Virus record (IMG/VR): IMGVR_UViG_3300036716_001108
Source: an uncultured virus (IMG/VR IMGVR_UViG_3300036716_001108)
Lineage: Duplodnaviria > Heunggongvirae > Uroviricota > Caudoviricetes
Length of the DNA stretch: 64,000 nt
Direction: 5' to 3' (one strand)
The translations under genes were made by a program, and so were the position numbers. This document shows positions 1 through 59,907 of the stretch, one piece after another. Below the pieces are notes generated by a model, which was not told the DNA's origin, ran no database searches, and saw only the letters and a list, made by a program, of their open reading frames with translations. Numbering within the stretch: the first letter of the stretch is position 1; every line of letters starts with the position of its first letter.

Positions 1-514
1 GAATCTTTTCTTTATAACAAACCTTTGCTAATGCATATGCTTCCATATCTACAACTTCACCATAATATTGTGTTCTATCTTCTACAAAAGAATCACCACT
101 ACCACAAGTTGCTCTTCTCTTAATGTTATTATATTCAGTAATACCAAAGTCTAACATCAATGGTGGGTCATCTTCGAATGGTGTTTCACCTCTCATAAAA
201 CCTAAACCCGTAACATCCATATCTCTCTGAACAAATTTCGTACAATCAACTAATGTTTTCTTCTTAATCTTACGAGAACCAGCAGTTCCATAATTGATTA
301 TTAACTTATATGGTATATCTGAACCATACTTTCCAAAGTGTGTTGTAAGTGCATAGGTTGCATTTACTTTACCAACTCCAGTATACAATACATCATAATC
401 TTCCAATTGTCCTTGAGTCTCTAATTCAAGAGCACATACAATCAATATTCCCTTTGTCTTCTCATATCCAGTTTCTCTTTTAATTTGTTCAAGTGGTTTA
501 TCTCTATTTAACAT
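1..514 (-). CDS. mtnN: 5'-methylthioadenosine/S-adenosylhomocysteine nucleosidase (runs off window edge)
   Basis: Not in the ORF track. Manual translation from ATG at 514: MLNRDKP..LIVCALELE..TGVGKVNA..IINYGTAGS..CGSGDSF..VVDMEAYALAKVC, the PNP/MTAN family motifs. Confidence 0.85.
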   Translation of the reverse strand, partial: MLNRDKPLEQIKRETGYEKTKGILIVCALELETQGQLEDYDVLYTGVGKVNATYALTTHFGKYGSDIPYKLIINYGTAGSRKIKKKTLVDCTKFVQRDMDVTGLGFMRGETPFEDDPPLMLDFGITEYNNIKRRATCGSGDSFVEDRTQYYGEVVDMEAYALAKVCYKEKI

Positions 515-1001
515 GAACTAATCCTCGTTCTTTCACTTGTTCAAAACTATAATTTAAACCATGTGTAAAGAATAAATCACCGATAATTGTATTTACAAGA
601 AATGGTAATGCTAATGTATAACAAGTTATTAATCCTTGTATCGTGTGTGGATATCCCAATAAGAATACACCTAAGTTAGTAAGTAAGAAGAACAATAGTG
701 AGCTACCAAGTATTGTTCCATTTGTAATTGTTTTAGAATTAATACCAATGTAAGATATCATCATAAAAGATAAATATACAAACATTGTTATAGAACTAAA
801 TCCCAAAAATAAATCTGATATGAACATACACAATAATGGTAATCCAAATCCAATCCACTTATTATTAAATCTACTTCCACCAAATAATGCTATTCCTGTT
901 ATTGGAGCTATATTAGGTGGGTGTGGTATTAATCTTGTTAATACTGCTAATACTATTAAAGATACCAATACTTTATTTTTACTTATCCCATTCAAATCCA
1001 T
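504..1001 (-). CDS. Integral membrane protein, DUF6580/ECF S-component-like putative vitamin transporter
   Basis: Several hydrophobic helices; RLIPHPPNIAPITGIALFGG and CYTLALPF..NT..GDLFF motifs. Confidence 0.65.
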   Translation of the reverse strand: MDLNGISKNKVLVSLIVLAVLTRLIPHPPNIAPITGIALFGGSRFNNKWIGFGLPLLCMFISDLFLGFSSITMFVYLSFMMISYIGINSKTITNGTILGSSLLFFLLTNLGVFLLGYPHTIQGLITCYTLALPFLVNTIIGDLFFTHGLNYSFEQVKERGLVHVK

Positions 1002-19331: not shown

Positions 19332-19334
19332 ATT

Positions 19335-25257: not shown

Positions 25258-25260
25258 TTA

Positions 25261-25863: not shown

Positions 25864-25865
25864 AA

Positions 25866-29993: not shown

Positions 29994-30475
29994 AATTCAA
30001 ATAACTTCTCGTATTGTTTCATTATCTCTTCACTAAATTTATCTACAGTATCTTTTGGTATTCTCAAATAATCCATTTCTAAATAAACTCTTCTCTTTCT
30101 ACATTCTCGTCTACTATATGTTCTAAAAAATTTATACCAAGGTCTTAATCTACCAGTCAATTTAATTGTTCCAGCCTTACTCAACCTATCTGGTAAATCT
30201 CCAGCAACTGCACCCTCTTCAAACTCTAATCCACCAACTCTTTTGAATAACATCTCTAACTTAGTCTCAGTAATTGGTCTTGTAATTTGTGTATCTAATT
30301 GAATACCAACTACAAATCTTTTAATTCTTTTTGTAGTTTTCTTTCTATATCTCATATCAGGATTAATTATCAATACAGTTCTCTTGTATAATTTATTTGA
30401 CCCCTCACTTTTATATCCAAAAGTTACAATCTGTCCTGGTTCAACTGCATGCCAAGCTGTATTTCTAAGAGCCAT
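29990..30475 (-). CDS. Basic hypothetical protein
   Basis: Coupled ORF. Confidence 0.55.
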   Translation of the reverse strand: MALRNTAWHAVEPGQIVTFGYKSEGSNKLYKRTVLIINPDMRYRKKTTKRIKRFVVGIQLDTQITRPITETKLEMLFKRVGGLEFEEGAVAGDLPDRLSKAGTIKLTGRLRPWYKFFRTYSRRECRKRRVYLEMDYLRIPKDTVDKFSEEIMKQYEKLFEL

Positions 30476-30920
30476 TACTTATATCCTTTACTATTCCCAT
30501 TTTTTGACAACACTCTAAGAATTCATATTGTCCAAATGTTTTTGAATTATCTACATCTAACATCTTATCATGTCCTTTATACTTTTCATCCTTTTGTTCT
30601 TCTTTCGTTAACTTACGAACTTGAGCTAATTTATAGTTCCAATTAGTTTGAGTTCCCTCTGGATATATCATACCCAACTCTCCCATATTAACTATAGATG
30701 GAAACCACATTATCTCTCTATCTTCATCATAAAAACAAACATCATTCATTAATTGTGTTGCTCCTAATTGTGCCGTTTTCAATTCATTACTTTCATATTT
30801 AAATGTAGTATTAGAATTATATCCACACCTAAAACACATAAAAGAACTAAATTCTTTTTGCATCTCTTCGAAACAATGGTCTGTATCAAAACATACTGGA
30901 CAATCTATTACCTTTTCCAT
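30465..30920 (-). CDS. Zinc-ribbon hypothetical protein
   Basis: CPVC..CFRCG. Confidence 0.6.
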   Translation of the reverse strand: MEKVIDCPVCFDTDHCFEEMQKEFSSFMCFRCGYNSNTTFKYESNELKTAQLGATQLMNDVCFYDEDREIMWFPSIVNMGELGMIYPEGTQTNWNYKLAQVRKLTKEEQKDEKYKGHDKMLDVDNSKTFGQYEFLECCQKMGIVKDISNGS

Positions 30921-30921
30921 A

Positions 30922-32274: not shown

Positions 32275-32474
32275 TTATTCCTTCTCCGTTTCTGAATCAT
32301 CTCTTTGGTTATCTCATGATATGGAACTTCATAAATACCTTCCATCATTCTTTTATGTTTATCTCTATTGAGCATCGCAAGATATGAGTTTGTAGGTTTC
32401 TTCCTACGATTACTTAATTTACTTCGTAAAAGTTTTTTAAATTTTTTCTTAGTATTACTTTTCGTTATTCGCAC
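32271..32474 (-). CDS. Small basic protein
   Basis: K/R-rich ORF. Confidence 0.45.
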   Translation of the reverse strand: MRITKSNTKKKFKKLLRSKLSNRRKKPTNSYLAMLNRDKHKRMMEGIYEVPYHEITKEMIQKRRRNK

Positions 32475-32477
32475 TTG

Positions 32478-32660
32478 TTACTCCCAAATTCTAGCTAATC
32501 TACGAATGAAACCAAGTGTGGCTCCGAATCCAAATGCTATTGCGGCTACTTGGAAATTTTCCATATATAGTGCCATAGCAGATAACATATATGTAGCAAA
32601 TCTTGCTACACCATATAGTGAAAAATTACCACTTGCTTCTACAAATTGTTGTCTTGTCAT
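32478..32660 (-). CDS. Small membrane protein
   Basis: Two hydrophobic segments; GAGG RBS. Confidence 0.55.
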   Translation of the reverse strand: MTRQQFVEASGNFSLYGVARFATYMLSAMALYMENFQVAAIAFGFGATLGFIRRLARIWE

Positions 32661-32839
32661 TATTTACCTCTTTTTTTAGGGAATGCTGGTGATAAAAGTT
32701 TTTTAAATCCTCTTGAAACTCTTGTCCAAAATTGATCTTCTTTACCTCTAAAATTACCGATAATATTACCATCTTTGGTTCTTTTTACAGTAGTTGTTAG
32801 TGATTTTCTTGTTTTTGTTTTTGTTGTTTTTTTCGGCAT
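32660..32839 (-). CDS. Small basic protein (59 aa)
   Basis: Manual translation MPKKTTKTKTRKSL..FPKKRGK; AGGAG RBS. Confidence 0.55.
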   Translation of the reverse strand: MPKKTTKTKTRKSLTTTVKRTKDGNIIGNFRGKEDQFWTRVSRGFKKLLSPAFPKKRGK

Positions 32840-32849
32840 TTTATTTCTC

Positions 32850-34283
32850 CTATACCTTGTATGTATTTACTCTTTTTCTTGGTGTCCAGTTTTTCCATGC
32901 TGTTTCCATGTGGTCTATGAAATTCTTACTCATCCAACGAACACTCTGCATTGAATCATCACTCTTTACAAAATAATGTCCTTTAGTACCACATCTTTTT
33001 CTTGGGTCTTTACCCATTTCATACCATTCTTTTATAGCATTTCCTGCATCTACCCAATCACATCTATCATCAAAGATATATGGTGTTGGTACTGAACCCA
33101 TTAGTGAACGAGTCTTTGGCCATACTGGCTTCACCCATTCTCCCCAAGTTAATTCTTCATTGTGTTCCCACTTTCTCCAATCGTGTAGTGATTTAATTTC
33201 TTTATAATCTTCAGCAGTTAGAAACTTATCCTTTACTTTAAATCCACATTGGTCTTGCATCCCTCCTGTAACATTTACTACAATTGGTGTTCCACACATT
33301 AATGATTCACAAGTACCTAATCCAAATCCTTCATTGGATGCAAGATTCATTGTTACATCTGATATATTATATAAAAAATTCATTTGTTTATTATCAAGTT
33401 TTTGGTGCGAAAATACCACTTGACATTCTGGAGCTAAAGCCTCAACAAGTGCTGGAATATCTGTTCCATTATCATCAACTGGTTGAGTATGCATTACATA
33501 AGCAACTCTACTTTGTTTCTCTTTTGGTAAAGTATTTACAAATTCTTTAAATGCCAAAATAGAATCACCAACCATCTTTCTTCGTATATTCCTATTCACA
33601 TATAATAAAATAAAATCAATTGGTCTATTACCTACTAATTCCTGTTTAAACTTTTTCATTTCTAACAATTCTTTGTTATCTGTAATGGGATAAAAAATTT
33701 CTTCATTAGCCCCATGTGGTGAATAAGTGGAATCCCAATCTGTTCGTGGTTTTCTTGTACAAACATCATTTACAATAGCAACAGTTTGTTTTGAAATATT
33801 CATAATCAAATCAGAACTCTCATAATAATTTTGATTATATTTTGGAGCTGGCCAATCATCCCAAATGTTATAATAAAAAATAGGAATATTTTGTCTAATT
33901 TCGTGTTCCATTTGATATAACCATTGCCAAAATCTTGGGTCTGTATAGTGTAGGATTGCATCAGGTTTTTCTGTTTTGATTAAATGTCGAATCATATCAG
34001 GATTACCATATCCACTTGTTGGGAATATTTTTAATGATGCATCATAAATTCCTGTTTCTTCTCTAATTGATTCATTCAAATCAAATACTTTACCTTCTTC
34101 AGGATGTTTGATTGCTCCACCAACTTGTACCCAATCGTATTTATCAATTGTTGAGAGGACAAATTCTCTTGACATTGTACCAACACCACTTGACATACGA
34201 AGGTCATCTGATAGTAATAAAATCTTTTTCTTTTTTCTTGATTTTTTTACTGATTTTAATTTAGGTAATTTTAATTTTGACAT
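32850..34283 (-). CDS. Glycosyltransferase family 4 (GT-B)
   Basis: SGVG, NRNIRRK, NEGFGLGTCESLMCGTP. Confidence 0.88.
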   Translation of the reverse strand: MSKLKLPKLKSVKKSRKKKKILLLSDDLRMSSGVGTMSREFVLSTIDKYDWVQVGGAIKHPEEGKVFDLNESIREETGIYDASLKIFPTSGYGNPDMIRHLIKTEKPDAILHYTDPRFWQWLYQMEHEIRQNIPIFYYNIWDDWPAPKYNQNYYESSDLIMNISKQTVAIVNDVCTRKPRTDWDSTYSPHGANEEIFYPITDNKELLEMKKFKQELVGNRPIDFILLYVNRNIRRKMVGDSILAFKEFVNTLPKEKQSRVAYVMHTQPVDDNGTDIPALVEALAPECQVVFSHQKLDNKQMNFLYNISDVTMNLASNEGFGLGTCESLMCGTPIVVNVTGGMQDQCGFKVKDKFLTAEDYKEIKSLHDWRKWEHNEELTWGEWVKPVWPKTRSLMGSVPTPYIFDDRCDWVDAGNAIKEWYEMGKDPRKRCGTKGHYFVKSDDSMQSVRWMSKNFIDHMETAWKNWTPRKRVNTYKV

Positions 34284-38840: not shown

Positions 38841-39410
38841 TTATTTCCAAGTATCACCATTCATCCATGTAATTAGTGAATATCGTATTCCATTTGTAAT
38901 TGGTGTTATTCTATGTGATAGAAATGCAGGAAATATAATTATACTACCTCGTGTTCTTGTAGCGGTATAATTACTTTCTCCAATTTCATTAGTAATTCCA
39001 AATTCTAAATCTCCACCCTCATAGTTTTTCTCATCACTCAACTGAATGATTGCGGATAATTTTCGTGTAGAAATTTCTTTTGCTCCACAATCAGTATGCC
39101 ATTTATATCTACCACCTTGTGTATATTTTAATAACTTAACTTCTTCCATTTCTTTAATATCATAATTGTATGTAGAAACATTTGCCAATTCAAAAACCAT
39201 TTTTAATTTATTAGTTAATTTTTCATCATCAAGTACAAGTTCTCTTGTATTACGAACTTCTTTATTAAGTAAATTTTTATCATAAGTTCCAGCAAGTTCT
39301 GAATCTTTTGATTCTTTACTTTCAAAATATTCAATTAACTCTATACATTGACTTTCTGATAGAAAATTATCTCTATGGATAACAAACTGAAATTTATCAT
39401 TAGTAATCAT
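38841..39410 (-). CDS. 2OG-Fe(II) oxygenase (PKHD/P4H-like)
   Basis: WHTD, RKLS, YEGGDL, FPAFLSHRITP..GIRYSL. Confidence 0.92.
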   Translation of the reverse strand: MITNDKFQFVIHRDNFLSESQCIELIEYFESKESKDSELAGTYDKNLLNKEVRNTRELVLDDEKLTNKLKMVFELANVSTYNYDIKEMEEVKLLKYTQGGRYKWHTDCGAKEISTRKLSAIIQLSDEKNYEGGDLEFGITNEIGESNYTATRTRGSIIIFPAFLSHRITPITNGIRYSLITWMNGDTWK

Positions 39411-41515
39411 TAATATCGTCCAGTCGTTGCAGTTCTTGCTATATTTATTTTATATTTATCTATATTAAGTGAATCCAAATATATATCTTTAACAACTTTA
39501 TTATCAGAATAATCCTTATCAAAATTACCACTTATTTCAAATGTTTCATCCAATTCTAATTCATTCACATTTTTAATATTTAAATACTTTCTATCTTCTT
39601 TATCTACATTAATTTTAAAATCTACTTTCAAGTTAAAATCTGAATTTGGTTTGGTTTCAAAATTAATATTAATAATAAACGAAGTGTCCTTTAAATTAAA
39701 TACTTTAAAATTATCAGTCATACCAAATTCTAAATTAACATTCTTTTGTAAACTATATATTAACCATGCAAATCCTTTAACCTCATCAATTAATGAATTT
39801 ATTAAAATTTCTTTAAAAGTAGATTCTCCTGATGATGGTGTTAAAAATGAATTTTTAAAAATAATATCATCAGAAACATTACTTTTATTTCCATCACTTT
39901 GAAAATTATAGAATGATGTATCTAATGCCCATGATTGAGCCATTGAAACATCCCCATCCTTAATCATCCCTCTTTTATTAATTTTAAAAATGTTCAAAAA
40001 TAAATCTGTTAAATGTGATCTCAAATTCCTATTAAAAATATTATTTCTATAATCATTACTTATCCAATTTTTAAGTAAACTTTCATCTTTTGAAATATCA
40101 AAAACTTCCCTTTCAGTATCAAGTGGTGTATCCACTAAGACATCTGTACCTTTCATTAAATTAATTCTACCAGTTTTTTCAACATCATATTTAAAATTAT
40201 GTTTAGTATCAAACAAAAACTTTAAACTACTTATAAAATCAATTGTAGTTTCTCTTGGATAACCAGGTATCCATCCCGCATCAAATACAATTTTATCATC
40301 TTTTGTAACTGCATCTAAATACATTTTAATAACATCTGGAGTTTGGTTCTTTTCCATTAGTGCTAAAGTTTTTGGAACTCCATTCTCTACTCCGATATTC
40401 ATATAAACCAATCCTGATTTTCTTGCTTCATCTAAAAACTTCTCATTCATTTTTTTATGAGTTCTAAAATAACCACCATATCTTATTTTTGGTAATTCTC
40501 CCTTGTCAATTAATTCATTTAATACATCAACAAATTTTTTATAATTACTTATTGAACCATTTATCAATGAATCTGTAAACCAAAAATTTTCAACTCCATA
40601 TTCTTTATTTAATTTTGTTATATCTTCAATTAACTTTTCAGGACTTCTATATCTATACAATCGAGTCTCACTACAAAAAGTACATTTAAAAGTACATCCT
40701 CTTGAACCTTGAATTGGTACTGTCAACTTTGGGCCAAAATCTGATGTTTTATCTTCTTTTCTAATTTCAGTATAACCTTTTAAAACTTCTTCACTCCAAG
40801 TTGGTGTACTTAAAGTATCAAGGTTCATTATCTGTAAATTGCCAGTATAAACTGGTTTTCTACCACTACGACCTTGTTCTAATACAGTCGCGAATGATGG
40901 TCTTAGTTTATCCCACTTCCAAATTCCATTTGTATTATCATAACTCCCAGTTTCTATTAAATCGGTTGCTAAATCTACAATAGTTTTCTCACCTTCATTT
41001 GTACCACATCCAACATCTACAAATTCTCTGTACTTTCCTTTTATCAATGATTCATTAGTTGACTGATTTGAACCAAGTTCGCTAAGTCCACCGTTTTCAC
41101 CATACCAACAAAATGGGCCGCCATACCATATATGTATATTGGGATTAAGTTGTCTTAAATAACGAGCAAGATAATCTGTTGTCATTATATTTGATGAATA
41201 TGTAGTAAAACTAACTGCATCAAATTCAGATAATTCTTTTACTATATCAAACCAAAATTCTTGAAACAATGGAACAATTTGTTCCCAAAAAACTCCCTTT
41301 GTAGACCAAGGATCATCTTGAGTCCATTTTTTAAAATACTCTTTATGATTATTTTTTAAATACAATGAACTCATCATATTAATATCATATTGAGTTGGAT
41401 TAAACCCCGCCTCCTTTAAGGCTGTATTTAAACTACCTAACGCAAATGAAGGAGTTGATATAGACCATTGTGGACAAATACATAAAGCTATTTTTAAATC
41501 TTTTTTGTCCATCAT
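39410..41515 (-). CDS. Cobalamin-binding-domain radical SAM protein (class B-like)
   Basis: CPQWSISTPSFALGSL, GGP, NEGE, SRGCTFKCTFCSE, FTDSLING, GVEN, GYPRET. Confidence 0.85.
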   Translation of the reverse strand: MMDKKDLKIALCICPQWSISTPSFALGSLNTALKEAGFNPTQYDINMMSSLYLKNNHKEYFKKWTQDDPWSTKGVFWEQIVPLFQEFWFDIVKELSEFDAVSFTTYSSNIMTTDYLARYLRQLNPNIHIWYGGPFCWYGENGGLSELGSNQSTNESLIKGKYREFVDVGCGTNEGEKTIVDLATDLIETGSYDNTNGIWKWDKLRPSFATVLEQGRSGRKPVYTGNLQIMNLDTLSTPTWSEEVLKGYTEIRKEDKTSDFGPKLTVPIQGSRGCTFKCTFCSETRLYRYRSPEKLIEDITKLNKEYGVENFWFTDSLINGSISNYKKFVDVLNELIDKGELPKIRYGGYFRTHKKMNEKFLDEARKSGLVYMNIGVENGVPKTLALMEKNQTPDVIKMYLDAVTKDDKIVFDAGWIPGYPRETTIDFISSLKFLFDTKHNFKYDVEKTGRINLMKGTDVLVDTPLDTEREVFDISKDESLLKNWISNDYRNNIFNRNLRSHLTDLFLNIFKINKRGMIKDGDVSMAQSWALDTSFYNFQSDGNKSNVSDDIIFKNSFLTPSSGESTFKEILINSLIDEVKGFAWLIYSLQKNVNLEFGMTDNFKVFNLKDTSFIININFETKPNSDFNLKVDFKINVDKEDRKYLNIKNVNELELDETFEISGNFDKDYSDNKVVKDIYLDSLNIDKYKINIARTATTGRY

Positions 41516-43214: not shown

Positions 43215-44975
43215 TTATTTATTATGCACTAAATAACCCTCAGCATAATAATTGTGTGTTCCATCTACCTCAAAGTTATATACAGTAACCTGTTCATCAC
43301 TCAACTCAATAGTTTCAATTGTATGTTCCAATCCATCTACATGAAGTATTTTATCTCCAATTGATAAATCACCAGCCTCTACCCACTTACCATCAGTATA
43401 AAATGGATGAACAGAAGTAGTTTTAATATTTCCATTTAAAATCATATAATATCTATCAGTATGTACATATGTTTTTGTTACTTTAGAATCAACAACTGAA
43501 CTTGTTCCTACATCAAATGATTTAACAATATCACCTATCTCTACCTCTTCAATAGATTTTACTCCTTCATGCATTTGAATTTGTGTTCCACCAACAAAAC
43601 ATGGTGGTAAATTATGAACAAGAATATCTGAACCAAAGTATGTATCTATTTCTTCAACATCTAAGGAATAAAAAGTAGTTGTTTCACTCACTAATGATAT
43701 ACTATCTATATTAATTTCTTCTTCAGAACTACTTAAAATTTTCATTCCAGTCTCAACATATTCAGGCAGTTTAAAACAATACTCTGAACCAGATTTTACA
43801 AAAAGTGATGCCCCAGTTCCTATTTTATATGAACTATTAATAAGATAATATTGATCTAATTCATCACTTCCCCATCCAGTTACAACTGAACTTGTAAGTT
43901 CAGCATTCTCTATAGATGAAGTTGACCAACTCCACATATTACTTAATTGAAATGGGCCTGCTGTATCTTCTGGTTGTCCAGGAATATTATAAGATGATAC
44001 AATGTCTCCAATTTGAATGTCTTCAACATCTTTACTACTACCATCATGCATTCTAATTGGTGTTCCCTCAATAAAAGTATCAGGGTTATGTAGATAATTT
44101 ATTTTATACTCATTACTACCACTAGCAACTGGTGTTTTTCTACATGAGTATCCTCTTAAATTAGATGAATCTGAAGTTAAGTAAACACTTGAAGAAGATG
44201 TGTGTAAAACCAACCCTCGAATAACATCTGTTTGTAATGAACCTACAATTACATCTGGAACAATATATTCTTCCACTACAGATCCTGAATTAACATAATC
44301 TGAAAGTGAACCAGTAGTAGCATCATTTAAATCAAGAAAAGAATTACCCCTTTTTAAATCTGTATTGGGGGATTTCACCACAACATCTGGAACACCTGCT
44401 CCATTACTAAAATCTGATGGTAAATCTGCATATTTTCTTGGTTGATAACTATATAGTCCAGAAGAGCTTACATAATTATTAAAACTCAATTTATTTGCTG
44501 AATACTCACCAATTGAATTATCAGTATCATAAGATATTTTCATCACAAAAACATTAGCATCAGATGAAGAAATTTCTGGGATAACAACTGGATATGGGTC
44601 TACTAATATTTTCTCATATTCTATATCAGCAGAAGATAAACTTGAACTCAAATGTGTTAAAAATCCATCTTGTGGTTTTGCTCCAACTTCAGTATTATCA
44701 CAAACAACACAAAGTTTATTATAACCACCACTACCTAAAAAAGTATTTAATGCATCAAAATCTACCCAATTAGTATCTATATTTCTCATTCTTAAATTAG
44801 TATTTATTTCTGCTAAATATATATCACCATCGGATGCCACCCAATCATACATACCCAAAATACCCTCATTGTTTTGCTCTCCATCCCAATGAACACTCTG
44901 TGTAAAAAGATTAGCAACTTCTAAACTTTTGTCTCGTAAAGAACCACTATATATCGTTTTATTATAATCTGCCAT
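43215..44975 (-). CDS. Putative circularly permuted ATP-grasp protein with two tandem Hint (BIL/intein-like) domains
   Basis: GMYDW..IYLAEINTN, VVVKSP, VEEYI; Hint1 aa 300-455 TFIEGT..ILVHN; LPP linker; Hint2 aa 459-585 CFVGGT..TTSVHPF..VYNFEV..NYYAEGYLVHN-K. Confidence 0.75.
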   Translation of the reverse strand: MADYNKTIYSGSLRDKSLEVANLFTQSVHWDGEQNNEGILGMYDWVASDGDIYLAEINTNLRMRNIDTNWVDFDALNTFLGSGGYNKLCVVCDNTEVGAKPQDGFLTHLSSSLSSADIEYEKILVDPYPVVIPEISSSDANVFVMKISYDTDNSIGEYSANKLSFNNYVSSSGLYSYQPRKYADLPSDFSNGAGVPDVVVKSPNTDLKRGNSFLDLNDATTGSLSDYVNSGSVVEEYIVPDVIVGSLQTDVIRGLVLHTSSSSVYLTSDSSNLRGYSCRKTPVASGSNEYKINYLHNPDTFIEGTPIRMHDGSSKDVEDIQIGDIVSSYNIPGQPEDTAGPFQLSNMWSWSTSSIENAELTSSVVTGWGSDELDQYYLINSSYKIGTGASLFVKSGSEYCFKLPEYVETGMKILSSSEEEINIDSISLVSETTTFYSLDVEEIDTYFGSDILVHNLPPCFVGGTQIQMHEGVKSIEEVEIGDIVKSFDVGTSSVVDSKVTKTYVHTDRYYMILNGNIKTTSVHPFYTDGKWVEAGDLSIGDKILHVDGLEHTIETIELSDEQVTVYNFEVDGTHNYYAEGYLVHNK

Positions 44976-49844: not shown

Positions 49845-52343
49845 TCAAAAAAATCTTTCAATAGATTGTTGTTTGTCAACTACTGCTTCCCAACCCATAC
49901 TTTCATAGAACATACCAAGTTTTTTACTCATAGCCTGCTCGAACATTCTACTACTATCTATCTTATTTTTGATTAAATCTAAAATTTCTTTTGGGTCTTC
50001 ATACCCCTTATAAGCTATGGTATCAAATCCAAACTCATTATCTTTTAAATAAACCCATCGTATCTTTGTTCCGTTGGATATCTTTTCATATTTTCTACCC
50101 TCGTACCAATAATCTAATAATGAATTGTAATTTATAGCCGCCTTAACATGAACAGGAGCACCTTTCTTGTATTTAGCAAATGAACTCTCTTCATCTCTTT
50201 CAATATACTTACCAATACCCTTTACACCGATAGGATTTGCCATTACATCATAAGATAGATTGTGCATATTTCTTTTGAATATTGATATTCTCTCATCAAT
50301 TTTTTCTTTTGGTACTTTTGCCAATATATCTTCTAAAACTTTACTTAATAAGTCTTTCATAGCTACTGCAAAATTACTACGAACTGTATCTAATCCTTTT
50401 ACTTGTATCTTATTCACTTTTCTACCAGCATCATTAATAATATTTAATCCATATCTTTTCTTAACAATAAACAATGCTGTTTTAGCAATAACTTCTTGTT
50501 TGATATCAAACTCGTGTTTATCAACATTAAGAAACTTCTTAGAAAAGAAATCATAACTTTGATTCAAATAGTCTTGTACTTCACCACACACTTCCATAAT
50601 TCGTTGTGTCATCATTGTTTCAGATAGTTTCTCATTTGGAAATCTATGTTCAATCAATGGTACTGCGGATGCGAAAATAGAATCTGTATCAATATAGATA
50701 ACATAATCCTTATCTGTACCTAACTCTTTATTATAAAAGTGGTTAGTAATCTTCTTACTGAACTTAATCAATGATTGACCTGTAAGTGTGGTTGCTTCAG
50801 CATTATCAATATCATAAAATCTAAATACTGGTAAACCCAATACACCATATAATGAGTTTAATAGAATCTTCTGTAGATATTGTCGTCTATCAAAGTATTC
50901 TTGTTTTTTAGTATCACCTTGTTCATGAAACTTCTTTACAAGTTTTCTCATCTCTACTCGTTCATTAAACCACTTTGTTAATAGTGCTGGAATCAATCCT
51001 TGTCTATCTGTACGATACATTATACCATTACTTGATATACTTATTTTTTGACTTTCTAAATAATCTTTTAATTCTATTTCAGATAATTTACCAACCTCTT
51101 TTCCATTCCTATTTTTAACTTGATATGTTTGTTTATGAGATTTTTTTATATAATTATTTGCATCCCACTCTTCAACCTTACCAATCTTGGTTTCTGGTGA
51201 AATGTTTAAACTACGAATAACACTTGGATACATTGATGTAATATCTAAATCAAATACCCACTCGTGTCTACCTCGTTGTGGTGATTGTACATAAGCACCT
51301 GCAAATTTATCTTCAATCTTTTTAGGTCTTGGTGGTTTATTGGGTGCCACCACACCAATCTTTTTCAGATATACTAAGATAGCTCCCTCTAAATATCTTG
51401 AACTCATAAACACATCTTCATATGGTACATGACCAATATGAGCTATACCACGAGCAATATCAATGAAATCCAATTTTTCATCTAATTCCACGAGTATTTG
51501 AACATCTCGAATATTATAATTTACAAACTTCTGTAAATCTTTATCATATAAATCATTAAGAGTTCCTTCATATTCAATTTTTTTCATACCAACTTCTTTT
51601 TCACCAATGTAATCTAAACGATAACTTGATTGTTGGATGGGTGAGAACTTTCTATATAAATGTAAATAATCCATTTGATTAACACCAGCAATAGTATACT
51701 TTTTCTTGTATTCACTATAAAAAATTTGTCCAATTGGTGATAACATAGTTGCTACATCTTTACCCAATACTCTTACTGAACGATTATATAAATAAGGAAT
51801 ATCAAAACTATCACTATTCCACCCACTTAATATTGTTGGTTGTATTTCCGAATATTTTCTATAAAATGAAGTTAACATTTCATACTCTGTAATATAAAAC
51901 TCAACTATCTGATTATCTTTTGTATAATTCTGAATTTGTTTTTTCTCATCCAACACATACGCAAAATATGTCTTAGTTATCTCGTCATATAATGAAATTG
52001 AAGTTATTTTATTTGGAGCTTTCATTGGATCAGGAAATCCCTCTGTAACCTCTACCTCAATATCAAAAAATACTTTTCTATTTCCAATGGATGGTTCATC
52101 TGAATCCATATATTGGTCAACTAAAAATCTTGTAGTTTGTGGTACATCACTTTCGTGTAAACCAGGAGTGTTATCTTCCCATTGGAAAATCTTTTTAACT
52201 TTATCACCATCAAGTGTAAAGTGTTGTCCTGTTGAATTTTTTATATAAGCGTATTTTTTATATGGGATTACTAAATAACCCCTTTTATCATCCCACAGAT
52301 GAATTTTCTGCTTTCTCATTTCAAAATATATTGATTGATACAA
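49845..52343 (-). CDS. Family B DNA polymerase (gp43-like)
   Basis: FDIEV, GWNSDSFDIPY, DITSMYPS, QKILLNSLYG, YIDTDS, KKRY. Confidence 0.97.
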   Translation of the reverse strand: MYQSIYFEMRKQKIHLWDDKRGYLVIPYKKYAYIKNSTGQHFTLDGDKVKKIFQWEDNTPGLHESDVPQTTRFLVDQYMDSDEPSIGNRKVFFDIEVEVTEGFPDPMKAPNKITSISLYDEITKTYFAYVLDEKKQIQNYTKDNQIVEFYITEYEMLTSFYRKYSEIQPTILSGWNSDSFDIPYLYNRSVRVLGKDVATMLSPIGQIFYSEYKKKYTIAGVNQMDYLHLYRKFSPIQQSSYRLDYIGEKEVGMKKIEYEGTLNDLYDKDLQKFVNYNIRDVQILVELDEKLDFIDIARGIAHIGHVPYEDVFMSSRYLEGAILVYLKKIGVVAPNKPPRPKKIEDKFAGAYVQSPQRGRHEWVFDLDITSMYPSVIRSLNISPETKIGKVEEWDANNYIKKSHKQTYQVKNRNGKEVGKLSEIELKDYLESQKISISSNGIMYRTDRQGLIPALLTKWFNERVEMRKLVKKFHEQGDTKKQEYFDRRQYLQKILLNSLYGVLGLPVFRFYDIDNAEATTLTGQSLIKFSKKITNHFYNKELGTDKDYVIYIDTDSIFASAVPLIEHRFPNEKLSETMMTQRIMEVCGEVQDYLNQSYDFFSKKFLNVDKHEFDIKQEVIAKTALFIVKKRYGLNIINDAGRKVNKIQVKGLDTVRSNFAVAMKDLLSKVLEDILAKVPKEKIDERISIFKRNMHNLSYDVMANPIGVKGIGKYIERDEESSFAKYKKGAPVHVKAAINYNSLLDYWYEGRKYEKISNGTKIRWVYLKDNEFGFDTIAYKGYEDPKEILDLIKNKIDSSRMFEQAMSKKLGMFYESMGWEAVVDKQQSIERFF

Positions 52344-52404: not shown

Positions 52405-53397
52405 TTATTTACAAATAGTTTCAACTAATTTTTGTGAAACAATATAAGGATCACAGTTTGATGATGGTCTTCTATCTTCTAAATAACCACATTTATCTTT
52501 ATCTACTTGCCAAGGAATACGAATGGATGCTCCTCTATCTGAAACTCCCCAACTGAATGTATCTATTGCTTGAGTTTCGTGTAGTCCTGTTAATCGTCTT
52601 TCGTTTCCTTTTCCATAAACTTCCATATGTTCTTTATGAACCTTTTCTAAATCCATACAAGCTTTAAATATAAATTCATCTCCACCATGTCCTCTCGTAT
52701 ACTTGGTAGAAAAATTGGTATGACAACCTGCACCATTCCAATCACCTTCTATTGGTTTTGGATCCAATGAAACTGATAAATTATTCTGTTCACAAATTCT
52801 TTCCATTAACCAACGAGCAACCCATAAATCATCACTCATATGAATTGAACCACCTTCACCGATTTGGTATTCCCATTGCCCTAACATCACTTCTGCGTTT
52901 GTTCCACATATATTCACCCCTGCATAAATACAAGAGTCCGTATGTTCTTTCATAATGTTTTCACCAATGTTTCTACCACAATAGTAATCACCTTGTGGTG
53001 GTGGTTCTCCTACTTCTGGCCATCCATATGGTTTATTGTTTTCATATAAGGTATATTCTTGTTCAAAACCTACCCATTCATCAATATCATCTTCTATATC
53101 TATAATGGTTTCTTCTAACATTCTTCTTGTATTTGTTGGGTGTGGTGTATCATCTACATTCCACACTTCACATAAAACTATTGAACCATTGTCGAAAGCT
53201 TCCAATGGATTTTTATAAACTCTTACTGGTTTCAACACACAATCAGAATTATGTCCTTCTGCTTGATTTGTAGAACTACCATCGAATCCCCATATTGGAG
53301 CTTCTTCATTTTTACCGATTTCTTTTACTATTTTTGTCTTACTTCTAATCTGTGTTGGACTACTACCATCCAACCAAAGATATTCTAATTTATGCAT
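52405..53397 (-). CDS. glnII: Glutamine synthetase type II
   Basis: 330 aa; WGFDGSST.QA, GFEQEY, NAEVMLGQWEYQ, GDWNGAGCHTNFST, RLTGLHET, GYLEDRRP. Confidence 0.92.
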   Translation of the reverse strand: MHKLEYLWLDGSSPTQIRSKTKIVKEIGKNEEAPIWGFDGSSTNQAEGHNSDCVLKPVRVYKNPLEAFDNGSIVLCEVWNVDDTPHPTNTRRMLEETIIDIEDDIDEWVGFEQEYTLYENNKPYGWPEVGEPPPQGDYYCGRNIGENIMKEHTDSCIYAGVNICGTNAEVMLGQWEYQIGEGGSIHMSDDLWVARWLMERICEQNNLSVSLDPKPIEGDWNGAGCHTNFSTKYTRGHGGDEFIFKACMDLEKVHKEHMEVYGKGNERRLTGLHETQAIDTFSWGVSDRGASIRIPWQVDKDKCGYLEDRRPSSNCDPYIVSQKLVETICK

Positions 53398-53481: not shown

Positions 53482-56289
53482 TTAGAAATTAACACTTAAC
53501 CCTAAGTTAAAGTATCTTGGTGTACCAAGAAATACTTCAGCATTATGTGCTGAGTGAGTTTTACTCCCATAGCTATTGTATTGACTATGATCTACTGCAT
53601 CTTGTACATATGTTTCGTCTAATGCGTTAAACACATGAGCAAATAAAGATATGTCATATCCACTAACTGGTAGTTGATATGAAGCATGTAAGTCCACCTT
53701 TGAATAAGATGGTGCTTCCCATACTTGTTCTCTGTCTGCATCTTCATCTGAACCATCGTATTCACGAGAATCAGGACTCCAATCACTATAGTTCTTATCA
53801 TAAGAATTCCATAGTGCTGAAATTACTAATCCCTTTACAGGAAAAATGGTTGCACCAAGTGCATATGAAGTCTGTGGCATATCACCAACATTCAACCCGT
53901 CAAGGGCGTATTGATAATCTGTAGTGGTTAAACCAGTTACATTACCGTTTTCATCATATTCATTTGATTGATACTTTCCATGAGCATCACCATCAAACTT
54001 CCAAGTACCAAGACTTACTGCTGCATCTAAACGAACCAATTTATGTAGTTGTGTAGAAGCTTCAATCTCAAGTCCTTGATGTTTTTGTTGAATACCTGTT
54101 AAGAAAATGACATCAGTATCACCTGAATCACCTTGTCCTGTGGTTACTGCTTTAGTAAGGTTTCTGTCTTTCCAATCTGTATTGTAAACATTTGCCTTAA
54201 CAGCAAATCTTTCAGATTCGAAATTGACACCAGCTTCTGAACTAATGAAACTTTCATTATTTGGATCAGAAGCAACCGTACCATCAAAGTAAATCACATT
54301 ATCCATGATAGGTGGTTTTTCAACATATCCAATGTTAGCAAAAAGACTAACATTATCATCTATGTCGTACATTGCTCCACCTTTGAACTGAGCAGCATAG
54401 ATAGCATCAGCTTCTATTACTTTATCAGCAACTGAAAAGTGGTCTTGGTAAGAATATTTAATACTTGATAATCCACCCATACCATATAGATTTAGATTAT
54501 CTTTACTATAATTACCTTGTACAAATCCACCCAACCAATCAACGGTAGTTTCATTGTGATAAGCGATTATATCACCTAACCCAACTCTTTTACCATCTGG
54601 TGCGTTATCATCAGCAAAATCCAAATAATAATCTCCACCTAATAAATCACGAACTTCTCGTGCGTGTTCTATACCTGCGGTTCTCCAATCAATACCTACT
54701 TGTAACTTAAACTCATCACTAATATCGTAATTAAGTTTAGAAATTACACCATAAGTATTTTGACGATTGATACTATTACGAAGAATACCAACTGATTGAT
54801 TATTATCAACACCATGTGTTCGTGTAAGAGCTTTCTTATCAACATATACTACTGAATCATCTCCAGAATTATATGCTATAAGACTATTCCAATCACGAGT
54901 CCAGGGACCACGACCATAATAAAATTTATAGTCATCATCACCAAGATTACCATCAGCATCAAATGTAGGAATCTTACCATAAGTTCCTGTTCCACCACCA
55001 GAACCACCTGACCAATAAAAGACTGAACTTAAACTTGTCTTATCATCTATTGTCCAAAAATGATTTAGATTTACTAATGGTTTGTGAAAGTAGTTTTCTC
55101 TTTCGTTTAGATAATCACTTGCGTGTCTATCTTGTAGTCCACTATCAAAAAGTCCACCTACACCATACATATACCAGTATTGTTTACCTTTATATGATGG
55201 GTCAACTGGTGACCAGTTTTGATTAAACTTATGTCCTACATCTGCGAACTTACCATCTTCACCAAGTGCTTCAGTATCATATCCATCTACACTTGCAGCA
55301 AAATCAGCGTCATAAGCACCGATATTCTGTTTGTATAGATTTTGTCCATGTCGCTGTGGAGCACCGATTGCATATAATTCCAATCGATGGTCAGCATTTA
55401 CTTGATAACTTGAACCAAAATAATATGCCCAAGCGTCTGTCCATGTCTTGTCAATGACACCATCACCTGTTTTACGAACTACAGTACCACTTAGGGCGAA
55501 TTTATCACCAATAAGTCCTGAATTGTAATTCAATGTGGTTTTCAGAAAACCCCCTGCACCACCTTCCTGTTTAAACTTACCACCTTTTGAAGCGGAAGCA
55601 GGATTTGTGATTATGTTCATCGTACCACCAATTGAGGGGGCAGCCAAGTTAACGGCACTTAATCCACGCTGCATCTGGATAGATTGAGCTGCATCTGCAA
55701 CTCCATCCCAGTTAGACCAATAGACCCAACCGTTTTCCATATCGTTTTGTGGAACTCCGTTTATCATTACTGCTACATTCCTCTGATTAAACCCGCGAAC
55801 ATTGATACGGGCATCACCCGCACCCCCACCTTGTTGCGTAGCATATACACTTGGTGTAGTATTTAAAGACATTGGTAAGTCTTGTGAACCAAGACGAAAT
55901 TCAATTTCTTCTTTACTAACTGTAGTATAAGCAACAGGTGTTTTATCATCAGCCCTTGAAGCTAAAACTTCAAGTGCAGACATCTCAAGTGCAGATATTA
56001 AAAGTGAGAAGTCTACGGTACTAGCCGTTCCCTCTACCACTTCAACCTCTACTGTATGAGATGCATATCCAATTGAAGAAGCTTTAATTGTATAAGTTCC
56101 TGCCCCTAAATCAATAGAGTAAGCTCCATCTGCATCAGCAGATGTACCTAAATCAGTTCCTTGTACTACAATATCAGCCCCAATCAATGGGTTCTTTTCT
56201 GTATCTGTAACTGTTCCGACTACCTGCCCATATAAGAACATTGGCATCATCATTGTTAAAAATACAGATATTAGATTATTTTTTTTCAT
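53482..56289 (-). CDS. TonB-dependent outer-membrane receptor with N-terminal carboxypeptidase-regulatory-like domain
   Basis: Signal peptide; GTVTD..PLIGA; plug RINVRGF..VMINGVP; C-terminal PRYFNLGLSVNF. Confidence 0.92.
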   Translation of the reverse strand: MKKNNLISVFLTMMMPMFLYGQVVGTVTDTEKNPLIGADIVVQGTDLGTSADADGAYSIDLGAGTYTIKASSIGYASHTVEVEVVEGTASTVDFSLLISALEMSALEVLASRADDKTPVAYTTVSKEEIEFRLGSQDLPMSLNTTPSVYATQQGGGAGDARINVRGFNQRNVAVMINGVPQNDMENGWVYWSNWDGVADAAQSIQMQRGLSAVNLAAPSIGGTMNIITNPASASKGGKFKQEGGAGGFLKTTLNYNSGLIGDKFALSGTVVRKTGDGVIDKTWTDAWAYYFGSSYQVNADHRLELYAIGAPQRHGQNLYKQNIGAYDADFAASVDGYDTEALGEDGKFADVGHKFNQNWSPVDPSYKGKQYWYMYGVGGLFDSGLQDRHASDYLNERENYFHKPLVNLNHFWTIDDKTSLSSVFYWSGGSGGGTGTYGKIPTFDADGNLGDDDYKFYYGRGPWTRDWNSLIAYNSGDDSVVYVDKKALTRTHGVDNNQSVGILRNSINRQNTYGVISKLNYDISDEFKLQVGIDWRTAGIEHAREVRDLLGGDYYLDFADDNAPDGKRVGLGDIIAYHNETTVDWLGGFVQGNYSKDNLNLYGMGGLSSIKYSYQDHFSVADKVIEADAIYAAQFKGGAMYDIDDNVSLFANIGYVEKPPIMDNVIYFDGTVASDPNNESFISSEAGVNFESERFAVKANVYNTDWKDRNLTKAVTTGQGDSGDTDVIFLTGIQQKHQGLEIEASTQLHKLVRLDAAVSLGTWKFDGDAHGKYQSNEYDENGNVTGLTTTDYQYALDGLNVGDMPQTSYALGATIFPVKGLVISALWNSYDKNYSDWSPDSREYDGSDEDADREQVWEAPSYSKVDLHASYQLPVSGYDISLFAHVFNALDETYVQDAVDHSQYNSYGSKTHSAHNAEVFLGTPRYFNLGLSVNF

Positions 56290-56317
56290 TTATAATCTCC
56301 TCTGTTTGTTTGTTTGA

Positions 56318-56351
56318 GACGCATTTTTTCATAGGTGCGTCAACTGCCTAT
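56318..56351 (-). promoter_or_regulatory. H-type RNA pseudoknot in the receptor 5' leader
   Basis: AUAGG-CAGUU-GACGCA-CCUAU-GAAAAAA-UGCGUC; both stems fully Watson-Crick. Confidence 0.65.
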
Positions 56352-56367
56352 TCGGGTATGTGAAATC

Positions 56368-58377
56368 TTAGTTTGCATAATCTTGATCATCGTTATCTCC
56401 ACTTAATGGTTGAATCTCGCATGAATCATTATTGCAAAATTTATCTATTTCAGCCTCTTCATTTTTAATTACACCAAATGAAAGAGGTTTTAATTTTTTT
56501 AATTGTTTATTATAAGTTTTCTCATCTATTGCTTCATATGGCATTTGTTTGTAAGCTCCATAATCATGTCTTGGTAATAATGAAATTCCTTTTAATCTAT
56601 ATTGAAAATAATTCAATACATATGGTAGTTCTTCAGCTTCTGTTTCAGGATTGAATGTTGCCGTACAACTAACTTGGTTATCTGCCCAATGTCGTTGTAA
56701 GAATGCGGCTAAACTGAATTGTTCCCAAATCGAAAGTTCAGCCGCAGTTCTTATACCTTCACCAACATCTACTGGAACATCTACAACCATAGTTGTATTC
56801 TCCGAACCAAATGCTGGCTCTAACTTATAACCTGCTTTTTTCAATGGTTCTATTAATTCAGATTGATTTGATAATCTTACTCTCCGAATATAGAAACGAC
56901 TTTCGGGATAATGTAATCCTGGAGTTGCTCCTGCTAATAATGAAACCGTTCCACTTGGTTTTACACTTGTGGTTTTAATTGATTTTGGTATGGCGAACCA
57001 ATCAGAATATAATTTATCCCATTCTTGTATAACATCATATCCATCTTCTAACCAAGTTTTTAATTTATCTAATCCATGATTAGTAATGAATTGTGCAACT
57101 CCACTAACACTACATCCAATTCTTCTATTTCTCAACATAACTCTATTTGTATCACTCCAATGAGTTCTACCAAGTGTTACCGTTTTAGCATACAGATAAG
57201 CATATTTAAGTGTTCTTTGATAGTCCTCTAATGAGTCGTGATTGTTTGGAAATGTTTCTACTAAACAACATAACTCATAACTTTCTAATGATTGTTCTAA
57301 ACAAGGATTTCCACCTGCAACTCTATGGTCTTTATTATCTCCACCATTTTGCATACGAGAAAATTTCCTCATATTTTCTAACCAAGCTAAACCAGGTTCT
57401 CCATTATCTACGATTCGTTTTGAAACTTCTGTATAATCCATACCAAGTTCTGCAAATATACTATTGTTTGAAGTCCACCCATATTGTTCTCTGTCTGGAT
57501 TAACTTTATAATTTTTTAAATCTAAATATTCATCATCATGGGGATCACCGAACACAATCTCTGCTGTTCGTCTTACATTCCCTGCTACGACACATTTACC
57601 AATTAGGTTCATTATATCCACAATTGTAGTTACGGTAATTAGTTCTCCACTATTCTTTTCTAATACTTTTCTTATATCTTCGTGAACTTCTTCTAATGGG
57701 TCTGGACCACTTGAAACACCGCCAAATCCTTTGATTGGTTCTCCTAATGCTCTAATCTTTGTATAATCAAACTCTACTGGGTGTGAACCATGAAAATAAC
57801 TTTCTAATAATAACCTTAACGAATCTACCCAACCTTCTCTTGTGTCTGGAATCTGAAATATTGTTGAATCCCTATCTTTATCTATACCTTTAACAAGTAT
57901 TTCACCAGCACCCTTACAGTCAAATCCAACACCAACACCTAACATACTTGCATCCATTAGAAAACAGAATGGTTTTGAGTAATCTTCTTTAAGTGTTTTA
58001 GTAGATACGAATGCACAATTATTTAGAGCTGCATATAATTTCTTTTCTTCTGTGATTGCTGTTCCCATTGCCCATAAACCACGACCAGGTGGTAAAAATT
58101 TCATATTGAATATTCTATCATACATATCTTGTGCAGATTTCTGTGCTTGCCACGGATTCCAACCTAATTGATGAGAATTAATCCAATTCCATTGCATTGA
58201 ATATGTTCCCTCTACAACTCTTTGGACGGTTTCCCACCATCTCTCATTTTTTCCATTCTCTTTTATACGGGAATAGGTTCTCATATAAACCAACTCACCT
58301 AAGCCATTAAAACCAAAAGGCGGTTTCTTTCTTTTATACTTATTAATAAAATTTTCTGATAACTTAAACTTTTCCAC
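56368..58377 (-). CDS. nrdJ: Class II adenosylcobalamin-dependent ribonucleoside-triphosphate reductase (monomeric type)
   Basis: PPGRGLW, LNNCAF, GNVRRTA, NPCLEQ..ELCCLVE, TTSVKPSGTVS, C-terminal FCNNDSC. Confidence 0.95.
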   Translation of the reverse strand: MEKFKLSENFINKYKRKKPPFGFNGLGELVYMRTYSRIKENGKNERWWETVQRVVEGTYSMQWNWINSHQLGWNPWQAQKSAQDMYDRIFNMKFLPPGRGLWAMGTAITEEKKLYAALNNCAFVSTKTLKEDYSKPFCFLMDASMLGVGVGFDCKGAGEILVKGIDKDRDSTIFQIPDTREGWVDSLRLLLESYFHGSHPVEFDYTKIRALGEPIKGFGGVSSGPDPLEEVHEDIRKVLEKNSGELITVTTIVDIMNLIGKCVVAGNVRRTAEIVFGDPHDDEYLDLKNYKVNPDREQYGWTSNNSIFAELGMDYTEVSKRIVDNGEPGLAWLENMRKFSRMQNGGDNKDHRVAGGNPCLEQSLESYELCCLVETFPNNHDSLEDYQRTLKYAYLYAKTVTLGRTHWSDTNRVMLRNRRIGCSVSGVAQFITNHGLDKLKTWLEDGYDVIQEWDKLYSDWFAIPKSIKTTSVKPSGTVSLLAGATPGLHYPESRFYIRRVRLSNQSELIEPLKKAGYKLEPAFGSENTTMVVDVPVDVGEGIRTAAELSIWEQFSLAAFLQRHWADNQVSCTATFNPETEAEELPYVLNYFQYRLKGISLLPRHDYGAYKQMPYEAIDEKTYNKQLKKLKPLSFGVIKNEEAEIDKFCNNDSCEIQPLSGDNDDQDYAN

Positions 58378-58533: not shown

Positions 58534-59907
58534 TTATTCAAATCCTTCTCCGTCAAAATCTTTCTTCTTCTGTGCTAATGTTTTTCTAATATATTCATCA
58601 GCATTATTCATCTTTCCTTGTACTTCTTTACCACCCTGTGTATTAGTTTCATAGATTTGTATGTAACCTGTATTAGTATTAATGGTTGCTGGAAATGTAA
58701 TTCCATCTGGACCAAATCTATTTTTAATCACATGGAATCTACCTGTATTTGCTATCTTATCTTCCACTTTTCTACTCATACTCATTACAAAATCTGCAGT
58801 CATAACCTTAGAGTAATCTTCTGATACTTTACTAGCATCAATTACATCTTCTTCTAATGATGAACGATTTGCTTGTGAAGCTGTCCATATCGGTATATCA
58901 AACTCACCTGCCATACCTCTTAACTCTTCATATACATGCCCAATCTGATGTCTTTTTTCTGTGAAGTTAGATGTTGATTTCATAATATCAGCGTAATCCA
59001 CAATAACCAAATCTGGTTTTATTCCTTGTAATTCACATTGTTGTAAATGTGCAAATATTGTGTTTACACTTGCTGTTCTCGTTGGATAATATTTGATAAT
59101 AAGATTTCCCTTTAACTTATCAATTGCTCTCTGTACATCATCCTTGTAGTACTGAAGATTTCCTGTAGGTTGTCCACTTATAATACAATCATATCGTAAC
59201 CCAACATAAGCCGCATTTAACTCCAATGTATAATGAATTACCGTTAATCCTTTTTTCATAGCATGTGTACCGATTGCCTGTAGTGTCCATGATTTACCAA
59301 TCCCTGCTGGAGCAACTATCACTCCAAGTTCTCCACCACCTAAACCACCATCCATTAAATCATTAACACTATCCCATGCAGTTGGTTGAGTATCTCTTGC
59401 TTGTTTTGTCATTCTTTCTTCAAACCCAGTAATGTATTCGTGTCCGATATCTCTTTCCATACCAGCAGTCATTGCTTTATCTATAATTCCCTTTATATCG
59501 TCATATTGTTGAGTTTCCAATAATTCAACTGATTGCATGATTGCATTTTTCATTATTTGGTTCTTACAAAACTCTAATGTTTTCTCTTTAACAAATTCTA
59601 AATCTGGGTCTTCTCTATGTTGCCAAGCACCTCTCAATGAATCTACAATTGCTACCTTTAATACATCATTTTCTACATCATCAACCATTATTTTTATTGA
59701 TTCCATCGTTGGTTGTGTTTTATATTTAACAAAATAATCCTTAATTGATTTAACTAAAAATTTATTTGAATCTGTATCAAAATAACTTACTTCAAGAATA
59801 TCAATAATTTGTTTTACAAACTTTACATCAGTTAATAAACTTGAAATAATTTTACTCTGAAAGGAAGTTCCGTATTTTATTAATGATTCACTCATGGTGT
59901 TGCCCAT
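58534..59907 (-). CDS. Replicative DNA helicase (DnaB/gp41-like)
   Basis: APAGIGKS, TLEL, VDYAD, WTASQANR, KNRFG. Confidence 0.93.
   Translation of the reverse strand: MGNTMSESLIKYGTSFQSKIISSLLTDVKFVKQIIDILEVSYFDTDSNKFLVKSIKDYFVKYKTQPTMESIKIMVDDVENDVLKVAIVDSLRGAWQHREDPDLEFVKEKTLEFCKNQIMKNAIMQSVELLETQQYDDIKGIIDKAMTAGMERDIGHEYITGFEERMTKQARDTQPTAWDSVNDLMDGGLGGGELGVIVAPAGIGKSWTLQAIGTHAMKKGLTVIHYTLELNAAYVGLRYDCIISGQPTGNLQYYKDDVQRAIDKLKGNLIIKYYPTRTASVNTIFAHLQQCELQGIKPDLVIVDYADIMKSTSNFTEKRHQIGHVYEELRGMAGEFDIPIWTASQANRSSLEEDVIDASKVSEDYSKVMTADFVMSMSRKVEDKIANTGRFHVIKNRFGPDGITFPATINTNTGYIQIYETNTQGGKEVQGKMNNADEYIRKTLAQKKKDFDGEGFE

Follow-up and report, generated by a model that had tools for sequence, protein, structure and literature searches.

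The receptor gene and its family

The DNA analysed here, called the window, comprises bases 1-64000 of a 73,046-base virus record that is about 40% complete (IMG/VR IMGVR_UViG_3300036716_001108). Its long genes all lie on the minus strand, and it holds a T4-like replication block in which a TonB-dependent receptor of 935 residues is encoded directly behind nrdJ. The gene order is DnaB helicase, nrdJ, a gap of 78 nt, receptor, glnII and PolB, and the features of this region are:

58534..59907, minus strand: DnaB-like helicase, the upstream edge of the block
56368..58377, minus strand: NrdJ (RTPR), a monomeric adenosylcobalamin-dependent ribonucleoside-triphosphate reductase of 669 residues (TIGR02505)
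56318..56350, minus strand: conserved H-type pseudoknot in the receptor leader, with stems of 4 bp and 6 bp and no Rfam match
56297..56302, minus strand: Shine-Dalgarno-like GAGGAG of the receptor, read from the sequence
53482..56289, minus strand: TonB-dependent receptor of the DdbC-like family, 935 residues, with CarboxypepD_reg and Plug domains, a barrel and a terminal Phe
52405..53397, minus strand: glutamine synthetase II-like gene (glnII), another passenger that comes and goes in the slot between nrdJ and polB
49845..52343, minus strand: family B DNA polymerase (PolB), the downstream edge of the slot

A preliminary description of the window had seen a full-length TonB receptor directly after nrdJ within the replication block, and had tentatively joined receptor, reductase and a distant DUF6580 gene into a possible cobalamin module. 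Both reading frames lie where it placed them, and the receptor is intact and looks transcribed, with a signal peptide judged by eye. NrdJ scores 354 bits on the TIGR02505 equivalog model, whose cut-off is 340, and is thus a class II monomeric RTPR, so that the reductase is B12-dependent as described.

The receptor resembles DdbC, the TonB-dependent receptor of the ddb loci, with which gut Bacteroidales utilise DNA. A protein of Phocaeicola massiliensis (P0271), judged by eye to be a close orthologue of Pv1 DdbC from P. vulgatus (PMC12478041, Dataset S4), served as stand-in. BLASTP aligns the two from end to end with 292 of 974 positions identical (30%; E 1e-120), a figure similar to the roughly 25% identity reported between the Bt and Pv types of DdbC (PMC12478041). 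Profile comparison with seven Pv-type proteins gave E 9e-134 over 844 columns at 32% identity, and with 15 riboswitch-led BtuB-type receptors E 4e-28 at 18%. In the trees (FastTree, 128 rows; IQ-TREE in quick mode, 39 rows; both quick methods, with long branches present), the receptors of phages and Marinisomatota, the nuclease-linked and the DdbC-type receptors form one group with a support of 99, while BtuB-type and thiamine-linked receptors fall outside. The threshold for the ddb subtypes Bt1, Bt2, Pv1 and Pv2 is more than 50% identity at 75% coverage, and the receptor lies below it with its 30% to the Pv1 stand-in; the four subtype queries themselves were compared with it by eye only. Sequence searches of the PDB with the receptor returned N-terminal matches only. 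Membership of the SusC/RagA family is not indicated: TIGR04056 gave 60 versus 368 bits, confined to the N-terminus, and the gene that follows is glnII or PolB, not SusD.

The genomic surroundings of the cellular relatives, which are often found beside nucleases, nucleotide pyrophosphatases or deoxynucleoside kinases, point in the same direction. In a sample of Bacteroidota-type loci, drawn from the phylum of a Flavobacteriales genome and searched for neighbours by BLAST, nucleic-acid-processing genes accompany 12 of the 23 close loci (direct neighbours confirmed by Pfam in 9). The same holds for 21 of 72 Marinisomatota loci, or 15 of 33 over 12 kb, as against 1 of 57 controls (distant family 0/17, BtuB 1/20, other receptors 0/20). 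A nucleotide pyrophosphatase lies directly downstream in three of the five closest orthologues outside the Marinisomatota. Other receptors in the controls stand beside amylases, peptidases or an iron permease, which indicates that the neighbourhood carries a signal in these genomes. Named phage and plasmid records contain only five full-length matches (at least 80% coverage), and each of the five is a Bacteroidota-type receptor. Four were inspected, and three of these have nuclease, DUF5689 or DUF5017 genes as neighbours: behind the first come lipoproteins, a DNA/RNA endonuclease and an EEP nuclease, behind the second DUF5017, and behind the third two DUF5689 proteins and three nucleases. A further match with 73% coverage is flanked by four nuclease genes or their partners.

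Two further arrangements were also observed. In one branch of the family (L211-L214) the receptor gene has a lamin-tail/T9SS protein on one side and, on the other, a T9SS-tagged endonuclease I or a PLD nuclease fused to DUF5689. More distant receptors of about 800 residues (L233, L234 and L236) are followed by a thiamine pyrophosphokinase and a sodium symporter, and are probable thiamine importers.

Origin, spread and leader of the phage gene

Most of the cellular orthologues with 55-72% identity are in records whose titles read Marinimicrobia, Neomarinimicrobiota or Fidelibacterota, and the receptor family is present in 58 of 101 genomes of the phylum Marinisomatota. In the trees the phage copies form one clade nested inside the Marinisomatota receptors. 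The best explanation of the sequences is that the gene was captured once from Marinisomatota (SAR406) and has been kept by selection in a large group of T4-like marine phages of about 200 kb, for which SAR406 bacteria would also be the hosts. Two contigs were left out of the host assignment, one binned with a metagenome-assembled genome (MAG) labelled Flavobacteriales (L119) and one with a Methanobacteriota MAG (L121), as both are phage contigs. The latter carries downstream of its receptor (L121:8930-11171) what by eye are nucleoside deoxyribosyltransferase-like and HD hydrolase-like genes, possibly a DNA-modification or salvage block.

A chromosomal-type locus on a 4.3-kb contig of a Marinimicrobia MAG (L124:986-3736) contains a receptor allele that is nested in the phage clade and followed by a fragment of a second copy. 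The divergent DegT gene next to it is the one also seen in small-genome hosts, and its receptor is 73% identical to a phage copy and 34% to the alleles at that slot; this one contig points to a possible transfer from phage to host. In the hosts L090, L113 and L146 the receptor comes directly after an apparent SOS cassette (an ImuB-family gene, a DnaE2-like gene and SRAP). No gene adjoins the receptor in the hosts more often than SRAP, which is upstream in 29 of 72 loci; it was left out of the neighbour counts because in some loci it travels with this cassette.

A relative of the receptor is encoded by 352 of the 354 pattern-matching IMG/VR stretches. Among 75 receptor loci from IMG/VR that were compared for context, and that were not dereplicated, nrdJ lies directly upstream in 55 and glnII in one; 14 lie in a different setting, frequently with an Hsp20 gene and a membrane protein, and five have no upstream DNA. 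The adjacency of nrdJ and the receptor is thus not due to chance. Its meaning becomes clearer from a survey seeded with DnaB and PolB, in which lineages were defined by PolB sequences less than 95% identical and 44 spanned the interval from reductase to polymerase; the query alignments derived from receptor-bearing phages, which biases the survey towards positives. The receptor occupies the slot in 24 lineages and is missing from it in 20, and all 44 have a class II reductase, 42 of them like that of the window and two of a 618-residue type (three members of that type tested have TIGR02505 as their best match, below its cut-off). Among the 44 lineages the slot never showed a class I reductase, so that the proposed comparison of nrdJ with nrdAB phages has no power in this group. 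Since all are class II and 20 have no receptor there, adjacency to nrdJ says little about function; it marks the place where a movable, dispensable gene is usually found and is not evidence for cofactor supply. Other genes found in the slot are glnII and, judged by eye, one that resembles a dUTPase gene. A complete relative of 216 kb (G231) has nrdJ at 108 kb and, 76 kb away, the receptor at 184.5 kb, and both DUF6580 and TonB are absent. Five contigs with a receptor-less slot have no receptor elsewhere either, but they are 30-52% complete.

The reductase gene itself is variable in several of these phages. A second class II reductase (618 residues, 27% identity) stands in the position of NrdJ in L337, L340, L343 and L393. 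NrdJ is 1011 instead of 669 residues long, at 86-98% identity, in L002, L003, L011, L354 and L469, probably by way of an intein, and in L039 an open reading frame of 316 codons splits nrdJ. What is left after nrdJ in L472 (8355-8500) is the pseudoknot, the ribosome site and a short remnant of the receptor's N-terminus, indicating a recent loss of the gene.

The receptor is under purifying selection, with a dN/dS of 0.17-0.28 against five close relatives, compared with 0.06-0.16 for PolB, NrdJ and DnaB. The plug is its most conserved part (0.99 across residues 161-200). Its identity tracks that of PolB weakly (Spearman 0.27, against 0.78 for DnaB and PolB; 54 loci, identities taken against the window alone), which hints at an exchange between phages. 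The receptor is covered by contigs with 0-10 mismatches in marine RNA runs from four studies, with DNA carry-over possible. The contigs are thin across nrdJ and one ends at 56350, the edge of the pseudoknot; such contigs cannot show transcript starts or rank genes. A promoter scan gave 23 sites where 28.7 were expected.

Expression may be set by the pseudoknot in the leader. Across 39 distinct copies, 99.2% of the cells of its alignment pair, an invariance that is partly built in because the copies were chosen by pattern; slid controls were 19-61% paired. Changes on both sides occur in 25 cells, at 4 of the 10 pairs (shuffles, for cells: 0 of 500). A check of 80 viral matches, out of at least 120, showed the receptor following in 77, and the other three end too early, though their first codons look alike. 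The structure was found in no host locus examined, and a search of the leader (56250-56420) against Rfam gave no match up to E 10.

Cobalamin and the DUF6580 protein

The proposal of a cobalamin module can be examined from the side of the hosts, since a cobalamin riboswitch is found in 80 of the 101 genomes of the phylum. Most of the 20 host riboswitches that were fetched lead a receptor of 670-745 residues, which matches the phage receptor in the first 290 or so residues only (best BLAST E 1e-14). These receptors match the BtuB model TIGR01779 in 8 of 8 cases tested, with a BtuB model as the top match in seven; the phage receptor matches neither TIGR01779 nor NF007926 at E 0.001. As a Pv-type DdbC itself gives a weak plug match to a BtuB model, weak matches are not diagnostic. 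In 49 host genomes with both a riboswitch and a receptor of the family, the two were on one contig in three cases, with 131 kb or more between them.

The riboswitch profile, which recovered 14 of 14 held-out positives, gave no match in 144 phage loci (duplicates included) or 72 host loci (many with a short upstream part). Among 26 Bacteroidota-type loci it found one, on the opposite strand and 2.3 kb off, so that none leads the receptor, and there was none in 20 further loci. No cellular orthologue was found behind a cobalamin riboswitch or together with btuFCD or btuG. A query with a host BtuB-type receptor gave no match in five phage records, in a search run without a positive control. The automatic names "outer membrane cobalamin receptor", carried by 5 of 120 listed homologues, and "ferrienterochelin receptor" were not accepted as evidence. 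Judged by its sequence, the receptor is not BtuB, and the BtuB-like receptor that the hosts keep behind a riboswitch is a different protein.

Two other genes had been brought into the module:

504..1001, minus strand: DUF6580 membrane protein (E 1.4e-43), a probable inner-membrane cobalamin carrier, separate from the receptor
39410..41515, minus strand: radical SAM enzyme with a weak match to a B12-binding domain

The DUF6580 gene is genuine, and the earlier guess that it encodes a B12 carrier was probably right, because nearly half of the bacterial loci examined sit in cobalamin-riboswitch operons. Of the 121 genomes in the Bacteroidota-type sample 49 contain it, and nine of 20 loci examined place it in such an operon with a BtuB-like receptor, twice directly behind a riboswitch of its own; the neighbouring receptors have TIGR01779 as their best match in seven of seven cases. 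Among the Marinisomatota 14 of 101 genomes have it, and in three cases a riboswitch lies within 5 kb of it on the opposite strand. In the window it lies 52 kb from the receptor; the phage gene (window and L487) sits among genes for MetK, an MTA/SAH nucleosidase and an adenine phosphoribosyltransferase, and it is present in one of five long receptor-bearing contigs. DUF6580 is therefore probably B12-linked on its own, but accessory in the phages. As a single sequence it has no match in the PDB at E 10, and a viral scan with it confirmed no relatives.

For the radical SAM enzyme, said to bind B12, the enzyme stands and the cofactor domain is doubtful: PF02310 matches at E 0.0035, under the cut-off, and the top NCBIfam matches are mostly B12-type radical SAM families, every one below its cut-off. 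The complete 216-kb relative encodes several B12-type radical SAM enzymes, as well as blocks of sugar genes similar to the long run of glycosyltransferases, epimerases and methyltransferases, with one aminotransferase, at 15694-34283 of the window. The window further encodes a 586-residue protein with Hint domains (43215-44975) and three tRNAs on the minus strand (5066-5138, 6367-6440 and 6444-6523); an Rfam scan of the window and 10 host loci found tRNAs only.

Possible substrates and comparison with known systems

On balance, with a probability of roughly 0.55, the receptor seems to import oligonucleotides or nucleotides that feed phage DNA synthesis by way of the host's TonB and host enzymes. 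During infection it would be exported and inserted in the host outer membrane, to be energised by the host TonB system, the phage having none (no TonB gene was found in four phage records, and one was found in the host control). Short DNA or RNA fragments or nucleotides would be taken up from seawater and processed by periplasmic nucleases, nucleotide pyrophosphatases, inner-membrane carriers and a deoxynucleoside kinase of the host, and the products would provide phage DNA synthesis with nucleotides, phosphate and nitrogen, alongside NrdJ. So read, the receptor works like DdbC, yet it is a member of no defined ddb subtype or locus.

Several observations weigh against an import of nucleic acids. 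None of the 75 phage loci has a DdbD-like partner or a nuclease, most Marinisomatota copies are orphans, and one full-length match in the named records (L151) has no nuclease neighbour. In an evenly drawn host sample a pyrophosphatase adjoins two of 18 receptors, with one unconfirmed DUF5689 seen by BLAST only. The seeds for the neighbour search were taken from loci of the family, and neighbourhoods are inherited, so the draws are not independent; Pfam applied to 94 control neighbours revealed nucleases in 1 of 20 loci that BLAST had missed. Furthermore, an identity of 30% to DdbC-type receptors is a distance at which TonB receptors can change substrate, and in PMC12478041 transport by DdbC itself rests on deletion of the whole locus and on homology.

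The receptor could instead have drifted from DNA to another small nutrient, such as a different phosphodiester or a cofactor that resembles a nucleotide (NAD, FAD, thiamine phosphate), which appears unlikely. Nucleotide pyrophosphatases, the commonest direct neighbours of the closest orthologues, also cleave cofactors of this kind; the next family out adjoins thiamine pyrophosphokinase in three loci, and the phage and most host loci lack a surface DNA-binding partner. However, the thiamine-linked family matches in the N-terminal third only (about 180-210 bits versus 390-1200) and branches outside the DdbC group, and neighbouring S1/P1 nucleases and deoxynucleoside kinases point to nucleic acids. 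Competition between phages, with the receptor replacing or outnumbering the host's adsorption allele for superinfection exclusion or host marking and transport being incidental, is quite unlikely. The known exclusion proteins of lytic phages are small lipoproteins, and a decoy would not need an intact plug, the very part that is most conserved. Such competition would agree with the decoupling of receptor identity from the replication genes, with a dN/dS above theirs, with the one host chromosome that has a phage-type allele and with the mutual exclusion of ddb subtypes between Bacteroides strains (PMC12478041).

Intact DNA might also enter for recombination and gene capture by the RecA-type machinery of the phage, whose block encodes RecA, an exonuclease and a helicase. 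A DdbC homologue of Riemerella, RA0C_RS04915, is reported as indispensable for natural transformation (PMC8459023, PMC12478041), and ComEC is present in 87 of the 101 host-phylum genomes. We regard this as improbable: ComEC was not seen in eight receptor-bearing genomes, five of them of about 1 Mb (MAGs being incomplete), the phages have no DUF5689 partner, and steady purifying selection is more easily explained by a gain in each infection. A cobalamin receptor that supplies NrdJ, with DUF6580 as the inner-membrane step, is very improbable. The phage needs B12 and carries a B12-linked gene, and nrdJ is the usual upstream neighbour; yet the receptor has neither a BtuB model match nor a riboswitch before it, groups with DdbC-type receptors and apart from the BtuB-type in both trees, and is missing from the slot in many lineages with a class II reductase, while DUF6580 seldom accompanies it.

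If the import of nucleic acids is accepted as the preferred reading, a wider picture may tentatively be drawn, for which we would give somewhat less than even odds. Common lytic marine phages would make SAR406 cells import dissolved DNA fragments through a DdbC-family receptor as material for phage genomes; an undescribed pseudoknot, possibly sensing nucleotides, would set expression, and a separate B12 carrier, DUF6580, could be added. The DNA released by viral lysis would then be recycled by viruses, tying lysis to a direct re-use of dissolved DNA in the sea, and a phage of about 200 kb infecting a small-genome host could draw on external DNA to make its progeny. Auxiliary nutrient-uptake genes of phages are known mainly for phosphate and nitrogen, and no publication on a DdbC-like receptor carried by phages, or on the receptor of these phages, was found in the open-access literature. 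It would be a first function, and a phage group, for a conserved gene of the SAR406 lineage, which is dominated by uncultured members, and the choice of substrate is turned into a simple question of binding and complementation.

Among known systems, BtuB and the riboswitch-led B12 receptors of the Marinisomatota share with the phage receptor the TonB-dependent barrel with a plug. They differ in length (670-745 versus 935 residues), in a similarity limited to about 290 N-terminal residues, in their separate tree branch and in their control by a riboswitch. DUF6580 is reminiscent of BtuM, the solitary S-component B12 transporter (PMC6072759), in being a small membrane protein of riboswitch-btuB operons, and differs in having no sequence match to any PDB chain. 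That a phage can carry a TonB receptor as an auxiliary gene has a precedent in the "SusC" receptor of the megaphage Mar_Mega_1 and LR745206, for which a carbohydrate substrate has been proposed (PMC9723777). LR745206 and related megaphage records match only 14-21% of the receptor and hence represent a different family.

RA0C_RS04915 of Riemerella anatipestifer, likened here by description, is a reported DdbC homologue with which DNA crosses the outer membrane and TonB is involved (PMC8459023, PMC8383284); it uses a DUF5689/DUF5017 partner, which the phage lacks. Compared with DdbC of the ddbABCDEF locus of gut Bacteroidales (Pv1; PMC12478041), the receptor is 30% identical, below the 50% subtype threshold of that paper, is encoded by a phage, has neither a DdbD partner nor a nuclease in cis and is led by a pseudoknot. 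It shares with DdbC full-length homology, the order of the domains and the motifs of plug and barrel, and its cellular relatives, too, are found beside nucleases and DUF5689/DUF5017 proteins.

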